A DNA stretch of 31,484 nucleotides from IMG/VR virus record IMGVR_UViG_3300029517_000011. One strand, written 5' to 3'. Below the pieces are notes generated by a model, which worked only from the letters and a program-made list of their open reading frames with translations, searched no databases and was not told the DNA's origin. This DNA comes from a virus. Lineage: Duplodnaviria; Heunggongvirae; Uroviricota; Caudoviricetes. Within the stretch, counting starts at the first letter, position 1, and each line of letters starts with the position of its first letter. Below, one piece after another: positions 2,454 to 13,226 of this stretch. Position numbers and translations under genes: made by a program.

Positions 2454-2876
2454 GTGGCAAAAGTTTTTACACAAGAAGAGCGGGAAAAAATTAAATGGCA
2501 GGTGGTGGAACTCGTGCGCCAGAGCGGCCGTGAGACGTTACGGCAACTGGAAGCTAAAACAGGTGCGACTAGATATCTGATGAGCGTTCTTGCCAGAGAG
2601 CTGGTAGCCAGTGGCGATGTATACAACTCCGGCTACGGGTTATTCCCCTCTGAACAGGCGCGTAAGGACTGGCAAAACGCCCGCAAAAAACTCTCGAGGG
2701 CAAAGGTGAAGAAACCTGCTGTGGTTGATCCGGACCTTATCTGGTCATCACCTGACGGAGAAATACGTCGCTACGACAGTCGCCTAAACATAATCTGTCG
2801 CGAGTGCCGGAAGAGCGAAGTTATGCAGCGCATACTGGCTTTCTATCAGGGTAATTTTCAGGACGTGGCGCAGTGA
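2454..2876 (+). CDS. Hypothetical protein (140 aa)
   Basis: GTG start at 2454 preceded by SD TAAGGGGGA. Stop overlaps the next gene's start (GTGA at 2873-2876), suggesting translational coupling. Confidence 0.6.
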   Translation: MAKVFTQEEREKIKWQVVELVRQSGRETLRQLEAKTGATRYLMSVLARELVASGDVYNSGYGLFPSEQARKDWQNARKKLSRAKVKKPAVVDPDLIWSSPDGEIRRYDSRLNIICRECRKSEVMQRILAFYQGNFQDVAQ

Positions 2877-3229
2877 GTGCACCGGCAACCATTCTTGATA
2901 TGTGCTGTGGCAGCCGCATGTTCTGGTTCGATAAGTCTGACAAACGGGCGATATTCAGCGATATCAGAAAAGAAGGATACACATTACGCAATGGGAGACG
3001 CTTGATTATCAGCCCTGACATTATCGCAGATTTTCGTGCATTATCATTTGCAGACGCATCTTTTTCGATGGTTGTATTAGACCCTCCGCATCTTGAGCGT
3101 GTTGGTGATAACGCCTGGATGGGAAAGAAATATGGACGGCTGAATAAAGATGCCTGGCGTGATGATTTGCGACAGAGATTTAAAGAAGCTTTTCGGGTGT
3201 TGAGGCCGCACGGCGTTCTGATTTTTTAA
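2873..3229 (+). CDS. SAM-dependent DNA methyltransferase-like protein, probably C-terminally truncated or interrupted by an in-frame TAA
   Basis: Motif I-like LDMCCGSRMF near the N-terminus and DPPH (motif IV-like of N6/N4 amino-methyltransferases) at about residue 70. ORF ends at TAA 3227-3229, but the same frame stays open for 29 more codons (WNETQIPVSQILALTDRKPVICQRTGKKR) to TAA 3317-3319. Confidence 0.5.
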   Translation: MSAPATILDMCCGSRMFWFDKSDKRAIFSDIRKEGYTLRNGRRLIISPDIIADFRALSFADASFSMVVLDPPHLERVGDNAWMGKKYGRLNKDAWRDDLRQRFKEAFRVLRPHGVLIF

Positions 3230-3491
3230 TGGAATGAAACGCAAATACCGGTAAGCCAGATTCTGGCACTGACAGATAGAAAGCCTGTTATCTGTCAACG
3301 AACAGGGAAAAAACGATAAAACCCACTGGATTATTTTTATGAAAGAGGCATCCAGTGAGTAGATTCGTAAGGTTACAGATACGTATATCTGAATAATTAA
3401 ATTCAGTTCTGTAAATAAAACTTAATCCTTAACCGGATGGATTTCTGCACCCTCAGAACATCAGGAGGCCGCCCGAAAGGGCGGTAGTGAA

Positions 3492-3602
3492 ATGCGAAAG
3501 TTCAAAATTATTATTGAAACGGGAATAGCTGGTGGAGATTTTGAGGATGTATTCGAAGTGGACGATGACGCAACACCTGATGAAATTCATGACGGAGCAT
3601 AA
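3492..3602 (+). CDS. Small acidic hypothetical protein (36 aa); frame remains open for 23 codons beyond the TAA
   Basis: ATG 3492 follows a GC hairpin (3468-3485, GAAA loop) and GGAGG at 3463-3467. Product MRKFKIIIETGIAGGDFEDVFEVDDDATPDEIHDGA. Below the size cut-off of the ORF track. Confidence 0.3.
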   Translation: MRKFKIIIETGIAGGDFEDVFEVDDDATPDEIHDGA

Positions 3603-3666
3603 GAAATTTTCTTTAACTACTGCAATTACTCATACCACGAAATAAAAGACGATGAGGAAGAACAAA

Positions 3667-3777
3667 GTGGCTGATTTTTGTTCAGCTAAATATAACATCA
3701 GTTTTGAAGAGCGGGATGAACTATTAATGGACTATGGTGAATTACGCGGTGGAAGTGCTGCTGATGTCGAATCCTAG
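3667..3777 (+). CDS. Small hypothetical protein (about 37 aa); same frame reopens after TAG 3775-3777 for 21 codons
   Basis: SD GAGGAAG at 3655-3661 then GTG 3667 (alternative ATG 3652). Acidic, protein-like product (...YNISFEERDELLMDYGELRGGSAADVES). Confidence 0.25.
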   Translation: MADFCSAKYNISFEERDELLMDYGELRGGSAADVES

Positions 3778-3839
3778 CGTGATGACTATGAAGCGGGAAA
3801 AACTCCGGTCGAAGCATATTGTGATGAGTGGGGCGATGA

Positions 3840-4094
3840 ATGAGCGAGATTAATTATCAGGAAGGGCATGAAACGGCGGGGCAAGCAAAACCAGTGGCAT
3901 GGCGATATCGCTACGTGAAAAAAGCGTTACGGACTTTCAGGGGAAGTAGTGGTCTGGTGACTGGAAATATGTACCGAAAAAAGAGGATTGTAACGACAGG
4001 CCGAACTATCAAATTCAGGCCTTATTCACTGCCTCACCAGTCCCGGTTACATCAGAAGAACTGGTTAAAGCTGTGCACTTTTATGAACAACTAA
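3840..4094 (+). pseudogene. Possible frameshifted or degraded small gene
   Basis: ORF-track ORF 3840-4094 starts plausibly (MSEINYQEGHETAGQ...), but its 3' half looks non-protein-like while the -1 frame reads a protein-like ...VPVTSEELVKAVHFYEQLKRENPPTSGN. Confidence 0.3.
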
Positions 4095-4380
4095 AACGCG
4101 AAAATCCACCAACATCCGGCAACTAGATTAATGGATTAACTATGTCGGTTAAACGACCAGCCAACTGAAAAAGCGGAAACCTGATTACAGGTTGCCAGAT
4201 AAGGCAATGAGCTACCTGGCGCGGAACGGACTGATAAGTATGGGGAATGTTTTACGATGAACCTTTAGACTAAAGAGTTTGTAACGCTATGTAAGTGATT
4301 TTTTCTGGTTTAGATATTTATATGTCCGGCCAAATTGAGGTGTGTTTAAATGTAATTGCACATTGATTGTAGGAGGAATA

Positions 4381-4560
4381 ATGAAAAACGCATTGCAGTT
4401 TTTGTTTGTTGCGTTCTGGTTGTTCGCATCATGTATGCCCATCATCTTCACAGCAAGGTATATGGAAAAAGTTGATGTTTTGATATTAATATTTGGATAT
4501 ATAAATGCCCTTTTTTTAGGGGTGTTCATGGCGGTCATGTGCATTGAATACTGGCGGTAA
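4381..4560 (+). CDS. Small hydrophobic membrane protein (59 aa, two predicted TM segments)
   Basis: ORF track frame 4342-4560; strong SD AGGAGG then ATG 4381 (MKNALQFLFVAFWLFASCMPIIFTARYMEKVDVLILIFGYINALFLGVFMAVMCIEYWR). AT-rich upstream region. Confidence 0.55.
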   Translation: MKNALQFLFVAFWLFASCMPIIFTARYMEKVDVLILIFGYINALFLGVFMAVMCIEYWR

Positions 4561-4708
4561 ATACAGCGAACTCCATTGGTTTAGTTGGATATTTACTGTG
4601 CTGGACAAAAACGGTTTGCGGGGAAATCTTAGTTAAGTAGAATGACTGCGGGTGCTTGAGGCTATCTGCCTCGGGCATGGACACCAACGGCAGATAGAGA
4701 AAAGCCCC

Positions 4709-6584
4709 AGTTAACATTACGCGTCCTGCAAGACGCTTAACATTAATCTGAGGCCAATTTCATGCTAGACACATGTAGGTTAGCCTCTTACGTGCCGAAA
4801 GGCACGGAGAAGCAGGCTATTGTTAACACCAAGCTGTAATGTCCCCTTTGAACCATTCTAAAATGTCCCCAGACAATTCTCTGGGGGATTTTTCATGACC
4901 AAAGAAACTGTTACGATGAGTCATAAGGAACTCCACCGACTTCAGATTATTCAGGAGTCAATTAATCGACATATTACTCAGGAACAAGCTGCGGCACGCA
5001 TTGGCATTTCTATTCGGCAGGTTAAACGTCTGGTGCAACGGTATAGAAATGAAGGGCCTTCTGGTCTGGTTTCCCACCGACGTGGAAAGCGTCCTAATAA
5101 TTCCTTTTCTACTGAATTCAGAGCAACAGTAATTTCACTCCTCAAAGGCCGTTACGCTGATTTTGGACCTACGTTTGCGTGCGAAAAATTGCGCGAGATA
5201 CACGGTTTATCTTTATCCGTTGAAACTCTCAGAAAGTGGATGATAGAAGAGGGGTTATGGCGTGAACGCCGTCGTAAAATTGCCCGTATATATCAACGCC
5301 GCATGCGACGACCATCTTACGGTGAACTGATCCAGATTGATGGCTCACCTCATGACTGGTTTGAAAATCGAGGCCCCAGATGTACACTGATCGTTTTCAT
5401 TGATGATGCCACCAGTGCGTTGATGGCGTTGCGTTTTGTGCCTGCTGAAACAACCCGGGCTTACATGGAAACCCTCCGGGGTTACCTTAATGATCATGGC
5501 GTACCGCTCGCTCTCTACTCTGATAGACACAGTATATTCAGGGTAAATAACCCAGAGCGGGAAGGTGAGCTGACCCAGTTCACTCGTGCGATAAAGACAC
5601 TGGGCATCGAGCCAATCCATGCCAACAGCCCGCAGGCAAAAGGGCGGGTAGAGCGCGCCAATCAGACACTACAGGACAGGCTGGTCAAAGAAATGCGGCT
5701 TCAGAATATCAGTGATATTGAAACAGCAAATGCATGGTTGCCGACCTTTATTGAAGCCTATAACAACCGGTTCGCTACGTCGCCTCGTACTACTGATAAT
5801 GCTCATCTTGATGTGCACCATTCTGAAGAGGAACTGGGTTATATCTTCAGCCTACAGGCGAAGCGCGTTCTGTCTAAAAATCTCACTTTCCAGTACAAAA
5901 GCAGTGCGTTTCAGGTACGCAGTGAGGGCCGGGGATATCGACTTAGGCATTCGGTTGTTACTGTATGCGAGAACTTTGACGGTGAAATTAACGTTCTGTA
6001 TGACGGGAAAGCGCTGGGCTGGGAAAAGTATGTTGATGGCCCGGAGCCTATACCACTGGATGATGAAAAGAGTGTCCATGAACGAGTGGATAATGCCCGT
6101 ATTGATTTACGCTCAAAATACTATGTTAAACCTAAAGCTGACCATCCCTGGCTTACGCGCCGAACGCAAAGTCATCAGCAAGTTAAGCCCCCGAAGTTAC
6201 CTAAAAAGAAGCCTGATCCCGATAAAAAAGATTGAAACCAAGATCGATTCGGTTGAGTGCATATCCATTCATAGGGTAGATTCTTAAGTCGCGTTTCTGG
6301 TGTTCATTTTCGGGTGGTTTGTTACTTGTTTTACCGGGGATATGCCAGAAACGCGCTGAGTCAGTCTGGGCGGTGCGCGTAATGAGGCGTTATGGTAAAT
6401 AGCCTATGCTAATGTCCGCTAAGAGCAAGAAGCGGAAGTTGGCAGTTTTGTGGACTGTCCCCACAAAAGTGACTACAGAAATAGTTGCAATTCATAATTG
6501 ATCATGGGTTGTCAGTTAAACTCGTGGCGATTTAAATAGACTAATTGGGAGTGCGTCCATTACTTATATCTTGTAATGTTAACT
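4709..6584 (+). mobile_element. Insertion sequence with a single rve-type DDE transposase; ends not resolved (4709 and 6584 are only a provisional 12-bp inverted match)
   Basis: Single transposase gene 4895-6235 with no second IS gene, interrupting the phage nin-like region. AGTTAACATTAC (4709-4720) is the reverse complement of 6573-6584. No convincing longer terminal inverted repeat found by eye. Confidence 0.3.
4895..6235 (+). CDS. IS transposase, HTH N-terminus plus rve integrase-core DDE domain (446 aa); IS481/ISNCY-like architecture
   Basis: ORF track 4895-6235. N-terminal HTH (ITQEQAAARIGISIRQVKRLV). Catalytic-core-like segments LIQIDGSPHDW, ALYSDRHSIF and ANSPQAKGRVERANQTL fit D, D, E spacing of retroviral-integrase-type transposases. 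SD GGGGGA sits inside a hairpin (4867-4886) before the ATG. Confidence 0.85.
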   Translation: MTKETVTMSHKELHRLQIIQESINRHITQEQAAARIGISIRQVKRLVQRYRNEGPSGLVSHRRGKRPNNSFSTEFRATVISLLKGRYADFGPTFACEKLREIHGLSLSVETLRKWMIEEGLWRERRRKIARIYQRRMRRPSYGELIQIDGSPHDWFENRGPRCTLIVFIDDATSALMALRFVPAETTRAYMETLRGYLNDHGVPLALYSDRHSIFRVNNPEREGELTQFTRAIKTLGIEPIHANSPQAKGRVERANQTLQDRLVKEMRLQNISDIETANAWLPTFIEAYNNRFATSPRTTDNAHLDVHHSEEELGYIFSLQAKRVLSKNLTFQYKSSAFQVRSEGRGYRLRHSVVTVCENFDGEINVLYDGKALGWEKYVDGPEPIPLDDEKSVHERVDNARIDLRSKYYVKPKADHPWLTRRTQSHQQVKPPKLPKKKPDPDKKD

Positions 6585-6671: not shown

Positions 6672-7004
6672 TTAGACGTAAATATCAATGGTGCCAGCGG
6701 TATTTGTATCGTCTTTTTTCTCTTCTTTTTTATCAGGCTGAACTGTCGCGTCTTCATTCTTTTTCTCTGCCTGCTGCCTTAACAACTGCTCCAGTTGAGC
6801 CCAGAGGCTTTCAATTTGCTTCTGTACCAATGCAGCCATTTCTTTTTTCTGCTGTGTCGTCATCCCCTCTTCCGATGAGATTTTCCCAAGCTTTTCAGTC
6901 AGCACCTGAATTTGTCTTGTGATTTTGGCTATTTCTGATGTTCCTTCCGGGGCGGAGTTGTTTGAAATAACGGTTGAGGTATTTCCCTGAATTGTGACAG
7001 ACAT
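6672..7004 (-). CDS. flxA: FlxA-like protein (110 aa)
   Basis: ORF track 6672-7004. N-terminus MSVTIQGNTSTVISNNSA and 110-aa length match my recollection of E. coli Qin FlxA. Preceded by SD AAAAGGAGAAA and a sigma-28 consensus promoter. Confidence 0.7.
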   Translation of the reverse strand: MSVTIQGNTSTVISNNSAPEGTSEIAKITRQIQVLTEKLGKISSEEGMTTQQKKEMAALVQKQIESLWAQLEQLLRQQAEKKNEDATVQPDKKEEKKDDTNTAGTIDIYV

Positions 7005-7536: not shown

Positions 7537-7776
7537 ATGGGTAGCATTAACCTGCGTATTGACGATGAACTTAAAGCGCGTTCTTACGCCGCGCTTGAAA
7601 AAATGGGTGTAACTCCTTCTGAAGCGCTTCGTCTCATGCTCGAGTATATCGCTGACAATGAACGCTTGCCGTTCAAACAGACACTCCTGAGTGATGAAGA
7701 TGCTGAACTTGTGGAGATAGTGAAAGAACGGCTTCGTAATCCTAAGCCAGTACGTGTGACGCTGGATGAACTCTGA
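7537..7776 (+). CDS. relB: RelB antitoxin (79 aa)
   Basis: ORF track 7537-7776. MGSINLRIDDELKARSYA...KPVRVTLDEL matches E. coli RelB as I recall it. Stop overlaps the relE start (TGATG). Confidence 0.9.
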   Translation: MGSINLRIDDELKARSYAALEKMGVTPSEALRLMLEYIADNERLPFKQTLLSDEDAELVEIVKERLRNPKPVRVTLDEL

Positions 7777-8063
7777 TGGCGTATTTTCTGGATTTTGACG
7801 AGCGGGCACTAAAGGAATGGCGAAAGCTGGGCTCGACGGTACGTGAACAGTTGAAAAAGAAGCTGGTTGAAGTACTTGAGTCACCCCGGATTGAAGCAAA
7901 CAAGCTCCGTGGTATGCCTGATTGTTACAAGATTAAGCTCCGGTCTTCAGGCTATCGCCTTGTATACCAGGTTATAGACGAGAAAGTTGTCGTTTTCGTG
8001 ATTTCTGTTGGGAAAAGAGAACGCTCGGAAGTATATAGCGAGGCGGTCAAACGCATTCTCTGA
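7776..8063 (+). CDS. relE: RelE mRNA-interferase toxin (95 aa)
   Basis: ORF track 7776-8063. MAYFLDFDERALKEWRKLG...; RelE/ParE-family size and position immediately after relB. Confidence 0.9.
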   Translation: MAYFLDFDERALKEWRKLGSTVREQLKKKLVEVLESPRIEANKLRGMPDCYKIKLRSSGYRLVYQVIDEKVVVFVISVGKRERSEVYSEAVKRIL

Positions 8064-8134: not shown

Positions 8135-8290
8135 ATGAAGCAGCAAAAGGCGATGTTAATCGCCCTGATCGTCATCTGTTTAACCGTCATAGTGACGGCA
8201 CTGGTAACGAGGAAAGACCTCTGCGAGGTACGAATCCGAACCGGCCAGACGGAGGTCGCTGTCTTCACAGCTTACGAACCTGAGGAGTAA
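8135..8290 (+). CDS. hokD: Hok-family small membrane toxin, HokD/RelF-like (51 aa)
   Basis: ATG 8135 to TAA 8288-8290, translated by hand: MKQQKAMLIALIVICLTVIVTALVTRKDLCEVRIRTGQTEVAVFTAYEPEE. Below the ORF-track size cut-off. Hok-family hydrophobic N-terminus with the conserved Cys. Confidence 0.85.
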   Translation: MKQQKAMLIALIVICLTVIVTALVTRKDLCEVRIRTGQTEVAVFTAYEPEE

Positions 8291-8737: not shown

Positions 8738-9793
8738 GTGCGGGTATTACTTCGACCTGTTCTGGTACCGGAACTCGGGCTGGTGGTCCTTAAGCCGGGC
8801 CGTGAATCCATGCAGGTATTTCATAATCCCCGGGTGCTGGTGGAGCCGGAACCGAAAAGCATGCGCGGTCTGCCGTCAGGAGCTGTTCCTGCCGTGCGCC
8901 AGCCGCTCGCGGAAGATAAATCATTACTGCCATTTTTCAGCGATGAGCGGGTGATTCGTGCTGCTGGCGGCGCTGGCGCATTGTCTGACTGGCTGTTACG
9001 CCATGTTAAATCCTGCCAGTGGCCTCATGGTGACTACCACCACAGTGAAACCGTCATACATCGTTACGGTACCGGCGCGATGGTATTGTGCTGGCACTGT
9101 GATAATCAGTTACGCGACCAGACTTCAGAATCACTCGGGCAACTTGCTCAACAAAACCTGACATCCTGGATGATTGACGTCATCCGCCACGCAATAAACG
9201 GTACACAGGAGCGGGAGTTATCGCTGGCTGAATTATCCTGGTGGGCGGTCTGCAATCAGGTAGCGGACGTATTGCCGGAGGCAGTATTACGTCGTTCTCT
9301 GGGATTGCGTGCGGAAAAAATCCGCTCGGTGTACCGCGAAAGCGACATCGTACCGGGAGAGCAGACCGCCACCAGCATACTGAAGCAGCGCACAAAAAAT
9401 CTTGCGCCGCTGCCTCACGCCCACCAGCAAAACCCGCCACAGGAAAAGACGGTGGTCAGCATTGCCGTTGATCCGGAGTCACCGGCTCAGTATCTCCAGC
9501 GCCAGAAACCACAACGGGAAGAGATGCCTGTATACACGCGCTGGGTAAAAACGCAGAAATGCATGACGTGCGGTAATCAGGCAGATGATCCGCATCACAT
9601 CATTGGTCATGGACTGGGAGGGATGGGAACAAAGGCTGATGATTTGTTTGTTATTCCGCTGTGCCGCAAATGTCATAACGAACTGCACGCCGGGGTAAAA
9701 GATTTTGAAGAAAAACACGGCAGCCAGCTGTTGTTGCTGATTCGTTTTTTAATGCACGCGAGAAATTCGGGCGTCCTGAAGTGGAAAGCATAA
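8738..9793 (+). CDS. DUF968-type protein (YdfU-like, 351 aa) with C-terminal Cys/His HNH-like motifs
   Basis: GTG 8738 preceded by GGAGG. C-terminus CMTCGNQADDPHHIIGH...CRKCHNELH resembles a zinc-finger/HNH-like motif. Size and position match Qin ydfU from memory. Confidence 0.65.
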   Translation: MRVLLRPVLVPELGLVVLKPGRESMQVFHNPRVLVEPEPKSMRGLPSGAVPAVRQPLAEDKSLLPFFSDERVIRAAGGAGALSDWLLRHVKSCQWPHGDYHHSETVIHRYGTGAMVLCWHCDNQLRDQTSESLGQLAQQNLTSWMIDVIRHAINGTQERELSLAELSWWAVCNQVADVLPEAVLRRSLGLRAEKIRSVYRESDIVPGEQTATSILKQRTKNLAPLPHAHQQNPPQEKTVVSIAVDPESPAQYLQRQKPQREEMPVYTRWVKTQKCMTCGNQADDPHHIIGHGLGGMGTKADDLFVIPLCRKCHNELHAGVKDFEEKHGSQLLLLIRFLMHARNSGVLKWKA

Positions 9794-10171
9794 ATGACAG
9801 AATGCATAGAGTTTGTTTTGCCTTACCCGCCGACGGTGAACACCTACTGGCGCCGTCGTGGTAGTACATATTTTGTATCAAAAGCTGGTGAGCGTTATCG
9901 CCATGATGTGGAGCTTATTGTTCGCCAGCAGCGACTGAAATTAAATCTGTCCGGTAGGTTGGCAATCAGGATTATTGCAGAGCCACCGGATAAGCGCCGC
10001 CGCGACCTGGACAATATCCTGAAGGCACCACTGGATGCGCTGACACATGCAGGACTGCTTATCGACGATGAGCAGTTTGACGAAATCAATATAGTGCGCG
10101 GTTTGCCTGTTCCTGGTGGGCGACTGGGCGTGAATATTTTCGTAATAAGAGGTAGTAATGATGGTGCGTGA
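9794..10171 (+). CDS. rusA: Holliday-junction resolvase RusA (125 aa)
   Basis: ORF track 9794-10171. PYPPTVNTYW...DKRRRDLDNILKAPLDALTHAGLLIDDEQ shows the RusA pattern (acidic DxD catalytic region) and typical lambdoid nin-region position just before Q. Confidence 0.85.
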   Translation: MTECIEFVLPYPPTVNTYWRRRGSTYFVSKAGERYRHDVELIVRQQRLKLNLSGRLAIRIIAEPPDKRRRDLDNILKAPLDALTHAGLLIDDEQFDEINIVRGLPVPGGRLGVNIFVIRGSNDGA

Positions 10172-10545: not shown

Positions 10546-10573
10546 AAACGGCCTAAGGGCCGTTTTATTCTTC
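10546..10573. terminator. Convergent hairpin terminator shared by Q (plus) and the inverted cassette (minus)
   Basis: Perfect 8-bp stem AAACGGCC / GGCCGTTT with TAAG loop at 10546-10565, followed on the plus strand by TATTCTTC. Lies 17 nt after the Q stop and directly after the stop of minus-strand gene 10565-10993. Confidence 0.6.
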
Positions 10574-10993
10574 TTTAGTAACTTCAATAGGTAAAACTTC
10601 TACATTCTTACCAATGTTAACAATCTTTCTAACAGTTTCTTCCCGATCAGCAATAAGCTCAGCTTTAAATTTCTCGCTTAGATGAGGGCTTTTCAGTTGC
10701 TCATCAATACCTTTTAAATCTCTCTCAAGGCGATTTCTTAGGGCGGCTTCGGCTGGAGACTCAAGTCCATGTCGATTGATAACATACAACATAATGTAGG
10801 TTAGCATTGCTGACACTAATGGGGCGAGGGCATACAAAAAAGCTCTCCATTCACTATTAGGGTCAGGCGCCAATAGTGGTACCAATGTAGTTAGAACTGC
10901 GCCAATCCCGCCTGTTGTTAGACCAGAATTACTACTTAAAATGCTTTTTTTATCACCGCTCATTATTTGACTGCCTGTGCGCGGTTGCATCAT
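10565..10993 (-). CDS. Cassette gene 3: membrane protein (about 142 aa, two predicted TM helices, charged coiled C-terminus)
   Basis: ORF track 10565-10996; start among clustered ATG/TTG codons at 10990-10996. Hydrophobic stretches GIGAVLTTLVPLLA and FLYALAPLVSAMLTYIMLYVI. Overlaps the end of cassette gene 2. Confidence 0.6.
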   Translation of the reverse strand: MMQPRTGSQIMSGDKKSILSSNSGLTTGGIGAVLTTLVPLLAPDPNSEWRAFLYALAPLVSAMLTYIMLYVINRHGLESPAEAALRNRLERDLKGIDEQLKSPHLSEKFKAELIADREETVRKIVNIGKNVEVLPIEVTKEE

Positions 10994-11216
10994 CAATTAG
11001 CTCAACGATCTTCTTTCCATCTTTAGCATCTAAGTGGATAGTAATCGTTTTTTCAAGCATGCGTTCAGCACTGTAAAACCTTAGTTCTACGATTTTTGTA
11101 GGAAAAATTTTACGCCACAACAACGCGGAACCAGCATAAACAAAGCGATAGAAGGTCGGGAGACTTACAAGCACCCCCAACCAAAAAACGATTTGTAAAA
11201 GCTGTTGCTGAATCAT
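10953..11216 (-). CDS. Cassette gene 2: small membrane protein (87 aa, one N-terminal TM helix)
   Basis: ORF track 10953-11216. LLQIVFWLGVLVSLPTFYRFVYAG hydrophobic segment. Starts 15 nt after the stop of cassette gene 1. Confidence 0.6.
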   Translation of the reverse strand: MIQQQLLQIVFWLGVLVSLPTFYRFVYAGSALLWRKIFPTKIVELRFYSAERMLEKTITIHLDAKDGKKIVELIDDATAHRQSNNER

Positions 11217-11231
11217 TAGTTTCTACCAAAG

Positions 11232-12113
11232 CTAGATCAATTTTTTCCCTTGAATCACGCGATGACGAAGTACTTTCTTGATAACATACTTTTCTGTTTG
11301 TCCTCGTGCGGAAGTTGTACGTGTTGTTTCTAGAAGCACAGAAAACATATCTTCACTTGTGATCGTTCCCTCTGCTTGCCTTACTTTAGCTAAAAACTCA
11401 TAGTCTGTAAGTAGTACGGAGTGCTCATCTTGGTTGTAGTCCATCCTCCACCCCTTCTCACTATGAAAGTTAACTTGGGTAAATTTTACATTAACCTCTT
11501 TTTCTTCAACTGTTTTGGTCAAAAGCGTCCCTCTGGGAAGGGGTTTAATCTCTTCAGTTTGCTCTCCTTCAAGCTTGAGCAAAACTTTATCATTCTCATC
11601 TACAATTTTAAAAATGGGAGAGTCTTTACCATCTAAAGGAGCCTGAACAACAGAAATCAACGCATCCCGAATTGTTGGCTCAGTTACCAAGGTTGCAACT
11701 GCTGATGAGCATTCAATCTCACCATCTTCAAATTCAAGAACAGCCTTATCTGTTCCTGCTTTTTTGGTAATCGAAACAACTTTTTTTGAGCCTAATTGTC
11801 TTATTAACGATAAAGCGGTGGCATGAGCTGTTGCGCCCACAGTTCCAACAATCCCGATAGTTTGCAGAACGTCAATTGCATGCGGTAGGAGTTGCACTAC
11901 AGTATATGCAATACCCACAGATCCTTTCTGGATGGGGGCAGTGACTAAAATTTTTACAGATTTGTTGCCCTCATTTAACAAGCTATCAGCTTTATTAATA
12001 AGAGTTGTCATGGAAAGTATTGATTTACCAAGTGTTTCAGCGTCAATAGCATGCTTTGACAATTCTTTATCATTGGCGTCATAAAACACCTTAAAGGAAG
12101 TTGACTTCTCCAT
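11232..12113 (-). CDS. Cassette gene 1: soluble protein of unknown function (293 aa)
   Basis: ORF track 11232-12113. SD AAGGA 5 nt before ATG (minus-strand mRNA ...gcatagcAAGGAccgtcATG). No recognisable catalytic motif (no P-loop, HxD, etc.). Confidence 0.7.
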   Translation of the reverse strand: MEKSTSFKVFYDANDKELSKHAIDAETLGKSILSMTTLINKADSLLNEGNKSVKILVTAPIQKGSVGIAYTVVQLLPHAIDVLQTIGIVGTVGATAHATALSLIRQLGSKKVVSITKKAGTDKAVLEFEDGEIECSSAVATLVTEPTIRDALISVVQAPLDGKDSPIFKIVDENDKVLLKLEGEQTEEIKPLPRGTLLTKTVEEKEVNVKFTQVNFHSEKGWRMDYNQDEHSVLLTDYEFLAKVRQAEGTITSEDMFSVLLETTRTTSARGQTEKYVIKKVLRHRVIQGKKLI

Positions 12114-12371
12114 GACGGTCCTTGCTATGCCTCATTGATTAATGCATATCTTGTTGATGGCTAAATTTGTAGAGACTTAATTTACCTAGAAAAGAAGATA
12201 AAATCACTAACGCGGTCCGCATTTTCTTGTTTATTGTGTTAAGAGTGGTCACTTCGGCATACAGCTTAAAACCGCTGCCGTGCGTTTTTTTGTCGTTTAT
12301 CTCTGATAATTATGGTGAATGCGCTGGTGGAGGAGGTAAGGGTGATTTTTAACCAGGTGATTTTTGAATGC

Positions 12372-12400
12372 TTGCAACATTGATTTCGTAACGTTATTAT
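12372..12400 (+). promoter_or_regulatory. Sigma-70 promoter TTGCAA-N17-TATTAT immediately upstream of the tRNA cluster; candidate late promoter (PR-prime equivalent)
   Basis: TTGCAA at 12372-12377, 17-bp spacer, TATTAT at 12395-12400; first tRNA begins at 12410. Preceded by direct repeats GGTGATTTTT (12341-12350 and 12356-12365). Confidence 0.55.
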
Positions 12401-12409
12401 CCTGCGCCC

Positions 12410-12485
12410 GGCCCTTTAGCTCAGTGGTGAGAGCGAGCGACTCATAATCGCCAGGTCGCTGGTTCAAATCCAGCAAGGGCCACCA
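12410..12485 (+). tRNA. tRNA with anticodon CAU, ileX/ileZ-like (tRNA-Ile2 lysidine type, or Met)
   Basis: Hand-folded cloverleaf: acceptor GGCCCTT/AAGGGCC, D-stem GCTC/GAGC, anticodon loop CUCAUAA, T-loop TTCAAAT, encoded CCA. Close to E. coli ileX as I recall it. Confidence 0.8.
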
Positions 12486-12486
12486 A

Positions 12487-12563
12487 CCGCCACTAGCTCA
12501 TCAGGAAAGAGCGTCAACCCTTTAAGTTGAGTGTGCGAGGTTCGAGTCCCCGGTGGCGGTCCA
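12487..12563 (+). tRNA. Atypical tRNA: anticodon loop CCUUUAA (formal anticodon UUU, Lys-like) with C instead of U at position 33; C1-G72 acceptor pair
   Basis: Folds as a cloverleaf (acceptor CCGCCAC/GTGGCGG, D-stem GCTC/GAGC with GG in the loop, anticodon stem TCAAC/GTTGA, T-arm GGTTCGAGTCC, encoded CCA) but has a noncanonical position 33 and an A-C mismatch in the T-stem. Confidence 0.55.
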
Positions 12564-12565
12564 GT

Positions 12566-12641
<76 letters not shown>

Positions 12642-12644
12642 TAT

Positions 12645-12719
<75 letters not shown>

Positions 12720-13010: not shown

Positions 13011-13226
13011 ATGAAATCCATGGACAAAATTTCAACTGGCATTGCCTACGGCACCTCCGCAGGCAGTGCTGGCTACTGGTTTTTACAGTGGCTTGATCAG
13101 GTCAGTCCGTCACAGTGGGCTGCGATTGGTGTGCTGGGGAGTCTGGTTCTGGGCTTCCTGACTTATCTGACAAATCTGTACTTCAAAATCAGAGAAGACA
13201 AGCGTAAGGCTGCGCGGGGAGAGTAA
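13011..13226 (+). CDS. Holin, phage-21 S-type (pinholin-like) with dual start motif (71/68 aa)
   Basis: ORF track 13011-13226. [28 protein letters not shown]... with Met1 and Met4 (antiholin/holin dual start), SD GGAGGTGAGG, two TM segments and a charged C-terminus. Confidence 0.85.

Follow-up and report, generated by a model that had tools for sequence, protein, structure and literature searches.

A three-gene cassette antisense to the late genes of a lambdoid Escherichia coli prophage: an unvalidated candidate for a membrane-linked anti-phage system

Introduction

One of the closest described arrangements to the locus reported here is that of RexA/RexB of lambda and of the RexAB type of Pseudomonas putida, prophage cargo which, like the present genes, is expressed apart from the lytic genes and combines a cytoplasmic protein of ~280-290 amino acids (aa) with a small inner-membrane partner. 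RexA binds DNA, and how the Rex system works remains a matter of debate after decades. Overexpression of RexA causes membrane defects that depend on RexB (PMC12894663). In Kiwa, a membrane-embedded KwaA-KwaB supercomplex senses membrane changes induced by infection (PMC11785009). The subject of this analysis is a cassette of three minus-strand genes, here called A, B and C (together, the trio), in the DNA of IMG/VR virus record IMGVR_UViG_3300029517_000011, a stretch of 31,484 nucleotides (nt) that was analyzed over its full length (the window) and is a lambdoid E. coli prophage.

The trio pairs a cytoplasmic protein with two small membrane proteins, and A matches PDC-S42, a defence candidate of the PADLOC collection. 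The trio is read here, with moderate confidence, as an anti-phage defence or exclusion system, an unvalidated candidate. An initial annotation, made from the letters of the window, had likewise proposed a defence/exclusion-type cassette on the analogy of lambda RexA/RexB; the PDC-S42 match strengthened the proposal, and the analogy was upheld for the architecture and failed for homology (see Discussion).

Results

Layout and borders of the cassette

An open reading frame (ORF) scan returned three minus-strand genes in the order A, B, C between antiterminator Q and the tRNA and lysis genes, convergent with Q (Table 1), exactly as first annotated. The sizes given for A and B in that annotation also stood, and the ~142 aa given for C did not: C is probably 132 aa long from an ATG, as its homologues begin at MS(D/E)DKK and RefSeq annotates the same start. 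From this ATG, C overlaps the end of B by 11 nt, and the abutting or overlapping junctions along A-B-C fit translational coupling. Orthologue comparisons with unsaturated dS gave dN/dS values of 0.03 for A, 0.10 for B and 0.04 for C. A, B and C are real genes under purifying selection.

The cassette was correctly called AT-rich. Its G+C content is 39.8%, compared with 50.5% for the window, and is the lowest among all 1.5-kb stretches of the window (mean 50.4, sd 4.7); GC3 is 0.29-0.42 in the cassette genes (A 0.33, C 0.29) and 0.45-0.56 in neighboring genes.

On the left, the stops of Q and C are separated by a spacer with a GC-rich hairpin, probably a bidirectional terminator or insulator, and hairpins of -8 kcal/mol or stronger were found in 23 of 35 distinct Q-C spacers of related loci. 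On the right, the AT-rich leader upstream of A presumably holds the cassette's own promoter. Homology with the prophage of E. coli MIN10, which carries a different cassette allele, stops at ~12200, and this position marks the right-hand edge of an exchangeable unit. Beyond it, ~12200-12409 matches the region between Q and the tRNAs in Stx2 phages, and in many E. coli prophages, at 85-88% identity. The portion at 12225-12409 probably carries the late promoter and the short-leader terminator (pR'/tR'; T-run at ~12285-12295) ahead of the tRNAs, so that the cassette would sit between Q and its target promoter. In MIN10, RefSeq annotates a 36-aa 'antiterminator' fragment inside the segment homologous to 12200-12409, and that segment as a whole is probably the late promoter and leader together with the remnant of another Q gene.

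Recurrence of the trio

Related loci were first collected with A as query. This collection held 70 loci (67 viral contigs, 2 genomes and the window), with A identities of 26-100%, and in 70/70 A was followed on the same strand by a B-like and then a C-like gene. The B-like genes encode 65-95 aa with an N-terminal hydrophobic segment; the C-like genes encode 110-150 aa with two hydrophobic segments and a charged helical tail. The A-B-C order was seen in ~85 loci overall, at A identities down to ~25%, and a narrower metagenome scan returned two short contigs carrying the trio of a subfamily ~25% identical to the window's A. At ~25% A identity, B and C still have the same size, order and topology, and sequence homology of these distant partners was undetectable (hhalign 4% and 10%).

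The small genes were not always annotated. In MIN10 (NZ_CP069677.1) an intact 81-aa B ORF (1323-1568 of the collected locus, L078) lies between annotated A and C genes and is missing from RefSeq, and the gene caller also overlooked B in two of three loci in nin regions (L075, L076). Genes for small membrane partners easily escape annotation, and the single-gene listing of PDC-S42 in PADLOC may have arisen in this way.

Protein A

The statement that none of the three proteins could be placed in a known family holds for B and C; A does belong to families. It scored 190.1 bits against NCBIfam NF053583 (cut-off 60; residues 7-285), E 3e-58 against PHROG 3243, and E 4.1e-27 (93 bits, residues 5-286 of 293) against PDLC05015, a hidden Markov model (HMM) of PDC-S42 that it covers full-length; a second PDC-S42 HMM, PDLC05017, was matched at E 1e-3, and a Vibrio homologue also matches PDC-S42 (E 1e-33). 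No Pfam match was found for A. By these profile matches, A belongs to three uncharacterised families; its membership of NF053583 (LAPAL_fam, named 'LAPAL motif-containing putative phage structural protein') and of PHROG 3243 is clear, and neither of these has an assigned function. The A family is large: 2179 cluster representatives reach E<=1e-3, and 891 reach E<=1e-10. Their lengths almost always fall within 280-310 aa, and no domain fusions occur.

Taken literally, the NCBIfam name would make A a phage structural protein, in keeping with a score far over the cut-off and with the location of most NF053583-type members in prophages. This explanation is scarcely credible. The label is contradicted by gene orientation (A is antisense to the late operon and outside the morphogenesis block), by the pairing of A with two inner-membrane proteins in every first-collected locus, and by the presence of A on plasmids and at non-phage chromosomal sites. 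In addition, A has no structural similarity to virion proteins, and tblastn against all 50,697 sequenced phage isolates found no homologue of it.

The AlphaFold2 (AF2) model of A (pLDDT 84, pTM 0.76) has N-terminal and middle alpha/beta domains, a C-terminal OB-like barrel (~198-285) and a basic tail. The C-terminal domain (~90 residues) follows the OB order b1-b2-b3-a-b4-b5, and its best structural matches were SSB, RPA and PriB, which thus concern one domain of a larger protein only. Against PDB, the sequence-profile search gave nothing below E 0.38 and Foldseek nothing below E 0.019; against viral models, Foldseek gave three significant, unnamed matches. As modeled, A has a fold without a significant full-length solved relative, in which the OB-like barrel is the only recognisable part, and it probably binds DNA or another nucleic acid through this domain. 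Within the OB-like region, F211, F216 and W222 are invariant or nearly so in alignments down to ~30% identity, and W222 is invariant even in the most distant set examined. Residues G64, S65, G87, C135, R149, G221, W222, D237, F240 and D255 are invariant; in place of H284, a large subgroup has K, R or Q.

A had been described as soluble. It is cytoplasmic, as that implies, but not entirely hydrophilic: a conserved Gly/Ala/Thr-rich hydrophobic stretch at ~residues 86-104 (broader limits ~76-107), of low confidence in the model, has a KD19 of 1.55, equal to the hydrophobicity of the B membrane segment.

Proteins B and C

Hydropathy, and for C also the AF2 model, supported the one membrane segment in B and the two in C that had been proposed. 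B consists of a membrane segment at the N-terminus and, after it, a basic ~50-aa domain predicted to be cytoplasmic. In C, two membrane helices precede a cytoplasmic helical hairpin that carries a charged tail (helices in the AF2 model: residues 17-31, 38-65, 70-90 and 97-115). Under the positive-inside rule, the soluble parts of both would face the cytoplasm, the same side as A. No family was found for B or C in any library, and scans of 24 diverse members of each against Pfam gave noise only; PADLOC has no models for either. C had sub-threshold similarity to Phage_holin_9 (E 0.18, 12 bits, cut-off 27) and to the PHROG 565 holin (E 0.028).

Genomic contexts

In enterobacterial lambdoid prophages the trio occupies the Q-to-lysis slot, where it runs against the late genes and converges with Q. 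Its recurrence at this junction, which had been suggested as a check, was observed: 40/52 distinct downstream neighbors of the trio in viral contigs are Q proteins (PF06530), convergent and at gaps of 11-42 nt. In MIN10 the same slot holds an allele with an A only 29% identical, between conserved flanks (Q on one side and, on the other, ~200 bp before the tRNAs at 85% identity), and a divergent allele between conserved flanks indicates hotspot behavior of the slot. A second lambdoid slot lies in the nin region between hok and DUF968, where the trio is on the same strand as the early genes.

Other settings are diverse. The trio stands immediately ahead of the holin in two Mu-like contigs, beside a TIR-like gene and immediately ahead of a GH108 endolysin in a Mu-like prophage, and among tail genes in a Pantoea prophage. 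In Enterobacter it lies at one end of an island that also encodes a serine recombinase and a VapE primase; Pseudomonas megaplasmids carry it in 30 records, next to insertion sequence (IS) elements; and in Shewanella it lies beside groEL and an IS element. A CI/LexA-like repressor (HTH_3 + Peptidase_S24) is followed after 63 bp by same-strand A and B genes of a distant subfamily in metagenome contig MAAC01009253.1 (locus L085, 121-1941). A Vibrio island has the trio flanked by SoFic and an HNH nuclease, and two of its versions (L073, L074) have both flanks and A-B-C in common and differ directly downstream, where one has SIR2-HerA with a 188-aa gene and the other the 858-aa PDC-S06 ATPase. This island looks like a defence hotspot with exchangeable cargo. 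On the evidence of these contexts, the trio is a self-contained operon that moves horizontally as independent cargo, and the original view of a horizontally acquired accessory cassette in the Q-to-lysis moron slot is borne out by its mobility across slots, plasmids and islands and by the 29% identical MIN10 allele.

Directly upstream of the trio in the Enterobacter island is a divergent 250-aa tRNA_anti-like (OB-fold) protein gene (5747-6499 of L080-L082), which is kept in all three versions of the island while other content varies; its product may be a functional partner of the trio.

The contexts also bear on a role in lysis or the phage life cycle, with the trio as a holin-timing regulator, or with B and C as holin/antiholin-like proteins under a regulator A. 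The trio does often adjoin lysis genes in unrelated phage types (the lambdoid Q-lysis slot, the Mu-like holin and the Mu-like GH108 endolysin), and the faint, sub-threshold similarity of C to holin profiles points the same way. Such a role is nonetheless very improbable, given that in lambdoid prophages the trio runs opposite to the lysis genes and is shut off by a hairpin, that a full set of holin, endolysin and spanin exists without it, and that it also occurs at phage-free sites (Shewanella groEL, the Vibrio island, megaplasmids and an integrative island). Furthermore, among 1025 E. coli genomes matching the flanks of a 2-kb query (the 3' end of Q or the late-promoter/tRNA-upstream segment), only 20 have the cassette.

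Neighboring genes in the window

Upstream of Q are RusA and DUF968, and just upstream of DUF968 lie addiction-type genes (Table 1). Downstream of the tRNAs the plus strand carries a P21-type holin, DUF1327, lysozyme, Rz and then the terminase genes. The Rfam search found no RNA element in the window beyond the four tRNAs, the first of which is Met by ARAGORN and tRNA-Ile (lysidine-modified CAT anticodon) in RefSeq. In the early/nin region there is an IS-type transposase (HTH + rve_3, 446 aa) at 4895-6235. The second lowest-GC stretch of the window is at ~2850-5100, where 1.5-kb windows average 41-43% G+C; it holds short ORFs only, including a 72-aa hydrophobic ORF (4342-4560) without a family match. 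The prophage of strain E10 has an identical cassette and different genes at the region matching ~2850-5100.

A different benefit to the lysogen, or a selfish function, was also weighed: an addiction toxin with its partner, an envelope-stress or competition factor, or lysogenic conversion. The Q-to-late-promoter slot also holds non-defence morons, and in Stx phages it is occupied by stx. The same prophage already has hok and RelB/ParE addiction modules, the trio is carried by megaplasmids and by small islands, on which stabilisation modules are frequent, and no domain links it to phage sensing. We consider such a module improbable all the same: three genes with a 290-aa OB-containing protein are unlike known toxin-antitoxin types, no toxin-antitoxin or bacteriocin family was matched, and the neighbors in other genomes (SIR2-HerA, SoFic, PDC-S06, the TIR-like gene and the CI-like repressor) point to immunity.

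Table 1. Features of the cassette and its surroundings, with positions in the window
Feature	Position	Strand	Details	Basis
Gene A	11232-12113	-	293 aa; first gene of operon	
Gene B	10953-11216	-	87 aa; begins 15 nt past A stop codon	
Gene C	10565-10963	-	132 aa from ATG at 10963; 143 aa if TTG at 10996	
GC-rich hairpin, AAACGGCC-TAAG-GGCCGTTT	10546-10565		In 35-nt spacer between convergent Q and C stops	Terminator scan and sequence
AT-rich leader/upstream region of cassette	12114-12224	-		Sequence reading
Shine-Dalgarno AAGGA	12119-12123	-	5 nt ahead of A ATG	
Small hairpin with T-run	12209-12223	-		Sequence reading
Conserved segment outside cassette	12225-12409	+	Common to lambdoid and Stx prophages; aligns with MIN10	
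T-run terminator-like element	~12270-12295	+		Sequence
Promoter-like site	12372-12400	+		Promoter scan
FlxA-like gene	6672-7004	-	Near addiction-type genes	
RelB antitoxin	7537-7776		Just upstream of DUF968	
ParE/RelE-type toxin	7776-8063		Just upstream of DUF968	
Hok/Gef toxin	8135-8290		Just upstream of DUF968	
DUF968	8738-9793	+		Gene scan
RusA	9794-10171	+		Gene scan
Antiterminator Q, PF06530	10158-10529	+	Convergent with gene C	Pfam E 5e-52
Four tRNAs (CAT, Lys-TTT, Thr-TGT, Gly-TCC)	12410-12719	+	Between cassette and holin	
P21-type holin, bona fide	13011-13226	+		Annotated in window

Discussion

Defence or exclusion is favored by the match of A to PDC-S42 together with the mobile contexts, the defence-island neighbors in Vibrio and the hotspot behavior seen with MIN10. 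As to mechanism, a Rex-like logic is put forward tentatively, on analogy, and with more doubt than confidence. B and C would form a small inner-membrane complex whose cytoplasmic domains hold A at the membrane. A would detect a cue of infection, most plausibly phage nucleic acid, via the OB-like domain with its invariant aromatics, and would then drive B and C, possibly aided by the glycine-rich hydrophobic stretch of A itself, to make the membrane permeable or to depolarise it. The membrane damage would abort the infection, as in the lambda RexA/RexB logic though without homology. The antisense placement behind Q, with its hairpin insulator, suggests, more speculatively, that the prophage's own early or late transcription could shut the cassette down on induction. 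The non-contiguous operon of Tai (tail assembly inhibition; PMC11364771) is a loose parallel. Tai was considered as a possible match for an antisense gene in a Q-dependent operon; it is a different system and was retained as a regulatory analogy only.

The same anatomy of small membrane proteins with a cytoplasmic, probably nucleic-acid-binding partner would also serve non-abortive superinfection exclusion of the Kiwa kind, in which B and C mark or sense the site of DNA entry and A binds incoming DNA and blocks entry, replication or late transcription while the cell survives. There is a precedent in the Kiwa supercomplex, which senses infection at the membrane (PMC11785009), no pore or toxin family is recognisable in either B or C, and the mobile and defence-island contexts would serve equally. 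We regard this version as unlikely, in that neither a PADLOC Kiwa model nor Pfam was matched and that B and C together have three membrane segments with almost no periplasmic loops for sensing outside events; by computation it is inseparable from abortive infection.

Several observations weigh against a defence or exclusion function. The PDC entries are untested computational candidates found embedded in BREX, DISARM or type I restriction-modification (RM) loci (10.1101/2024.01.29.577857); the window locus of the PDC-S42 homologue is a prophage, and embedding in BREX, DISARM or RM was not seen in the sampled loci. Searches of the literature yielded no paper naming PDC-S42, the LAPAL family or motif, PHROG 3243 or the RefSeq accessions, and S42 is unmentioned in the PADLOC-paper supplements searched. 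In library scans, none of the three proteins showed a recognisable catalytic, toxin or channel family, and the invariant residues of A form no recognisable catalytic motif, in agreement with what had been noted for the large protein at the outset. Co-location with defence islands was examined in one genus only (Vibrio). The cassette is rare in E. coli, with 32/5426 complete genomes positive (20 with this allele and 12 with detectable relatives), and the lack of an A homologue in the sequenced phage isolates, given above, also counts here. The minus-strand promoter scan found no convincing sigma-70 consensus upstream of A, and expression of the cassette in the lysogen is presumptive. Finally, an ENA metagenome contig of high GC (locus L089, 7001-8765) from a distant subfamily has A without a B-like or C-like ORF, and an apparently stand-alone A in one distant subfamily means that B and C are not universally required. 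The A of this contig is 308 aa long owing in part to no other gene's fusion but carrying an insertion within its hydrophobic stretch, and the subfamily may be truly single-gene.

The three-gene membrane-linked architecture and the lack of a solved relative appear to be previously undescribed, A itself having already been flagged by PADLOC. If the reading as a defence or exclusion system is true, a widespread defence family so far filed as a single gene would be added, and its architecture would be corrected along with a misleading RefSeq product name. The trio would then be a second, evolutionarily independent case of a Rex-type arrangement of cytoplasmic DNA-binding protein and small membrane partner and, with the Rex debate continuing, comparison with the trio could reveal the essential features. 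The exchangeable alleles in the Q-to-late-promoter slot indicate that lambdoid prophages swap cargo via recombination between conserved flanks. If there is no phenotype, the trio is one more conserved moron of unknown function.

Comparison with known systems

Among known defence families, Zorya included, PADLOC yielded PDC-S42 only. PDC-S42 belongs to the single-gene (S) series of PADLOC; here, A is accompanied by two membrane-protein genes in nearly all of the ~85 loci. It is a credible proposal, about which doubt slightly prevails, that PDC-S42 is a three-component membrane-anchored immune system made of a nucleic-acid-sensing A and two small inner-membrane proteins, widespread in Gammaproteobacteria (~2000 clusters at 50% identity), where prophages, satellites or islands, and megaplasmids carry it, with a mechanism unrelated to Rex, Kiwa and characterised systems and with the antisense position behind Q as a lytic-cycle off-switch.

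With the OB-fold single-stranded DNA-binding proteins SSB, RPA and PriB, the C-terminus of A shares the order of strands and helix. With Kiwa, a defence complex at the inner membrane (PMC11785009), the trio shares a membrane-embedded component and a cytoplasmic partner; Kiwa (KwaB with DUF4868, four-helix KwaA) differs in gene number and membrane topology, and A has no significant match to a solved structure. A, B and C matched neither the PADLOC KwaA/KwaB models nor Pfam. Homology to Rex was rejected for A with RexA (hhalign 0.2%, no structural match) and for C with RexB (hhalign 2.6%). The Rex system has two genes and the trio three, and RexB has four membrane segments, whereas B has one and C two. 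While rexAB adjoins the repressor, the window cassette adjoins Q; in the distant L085 homologue, however, the genes lie directly downstream of the CI-like repressor, which is the layout of cI-rexA-rexB in lambda.

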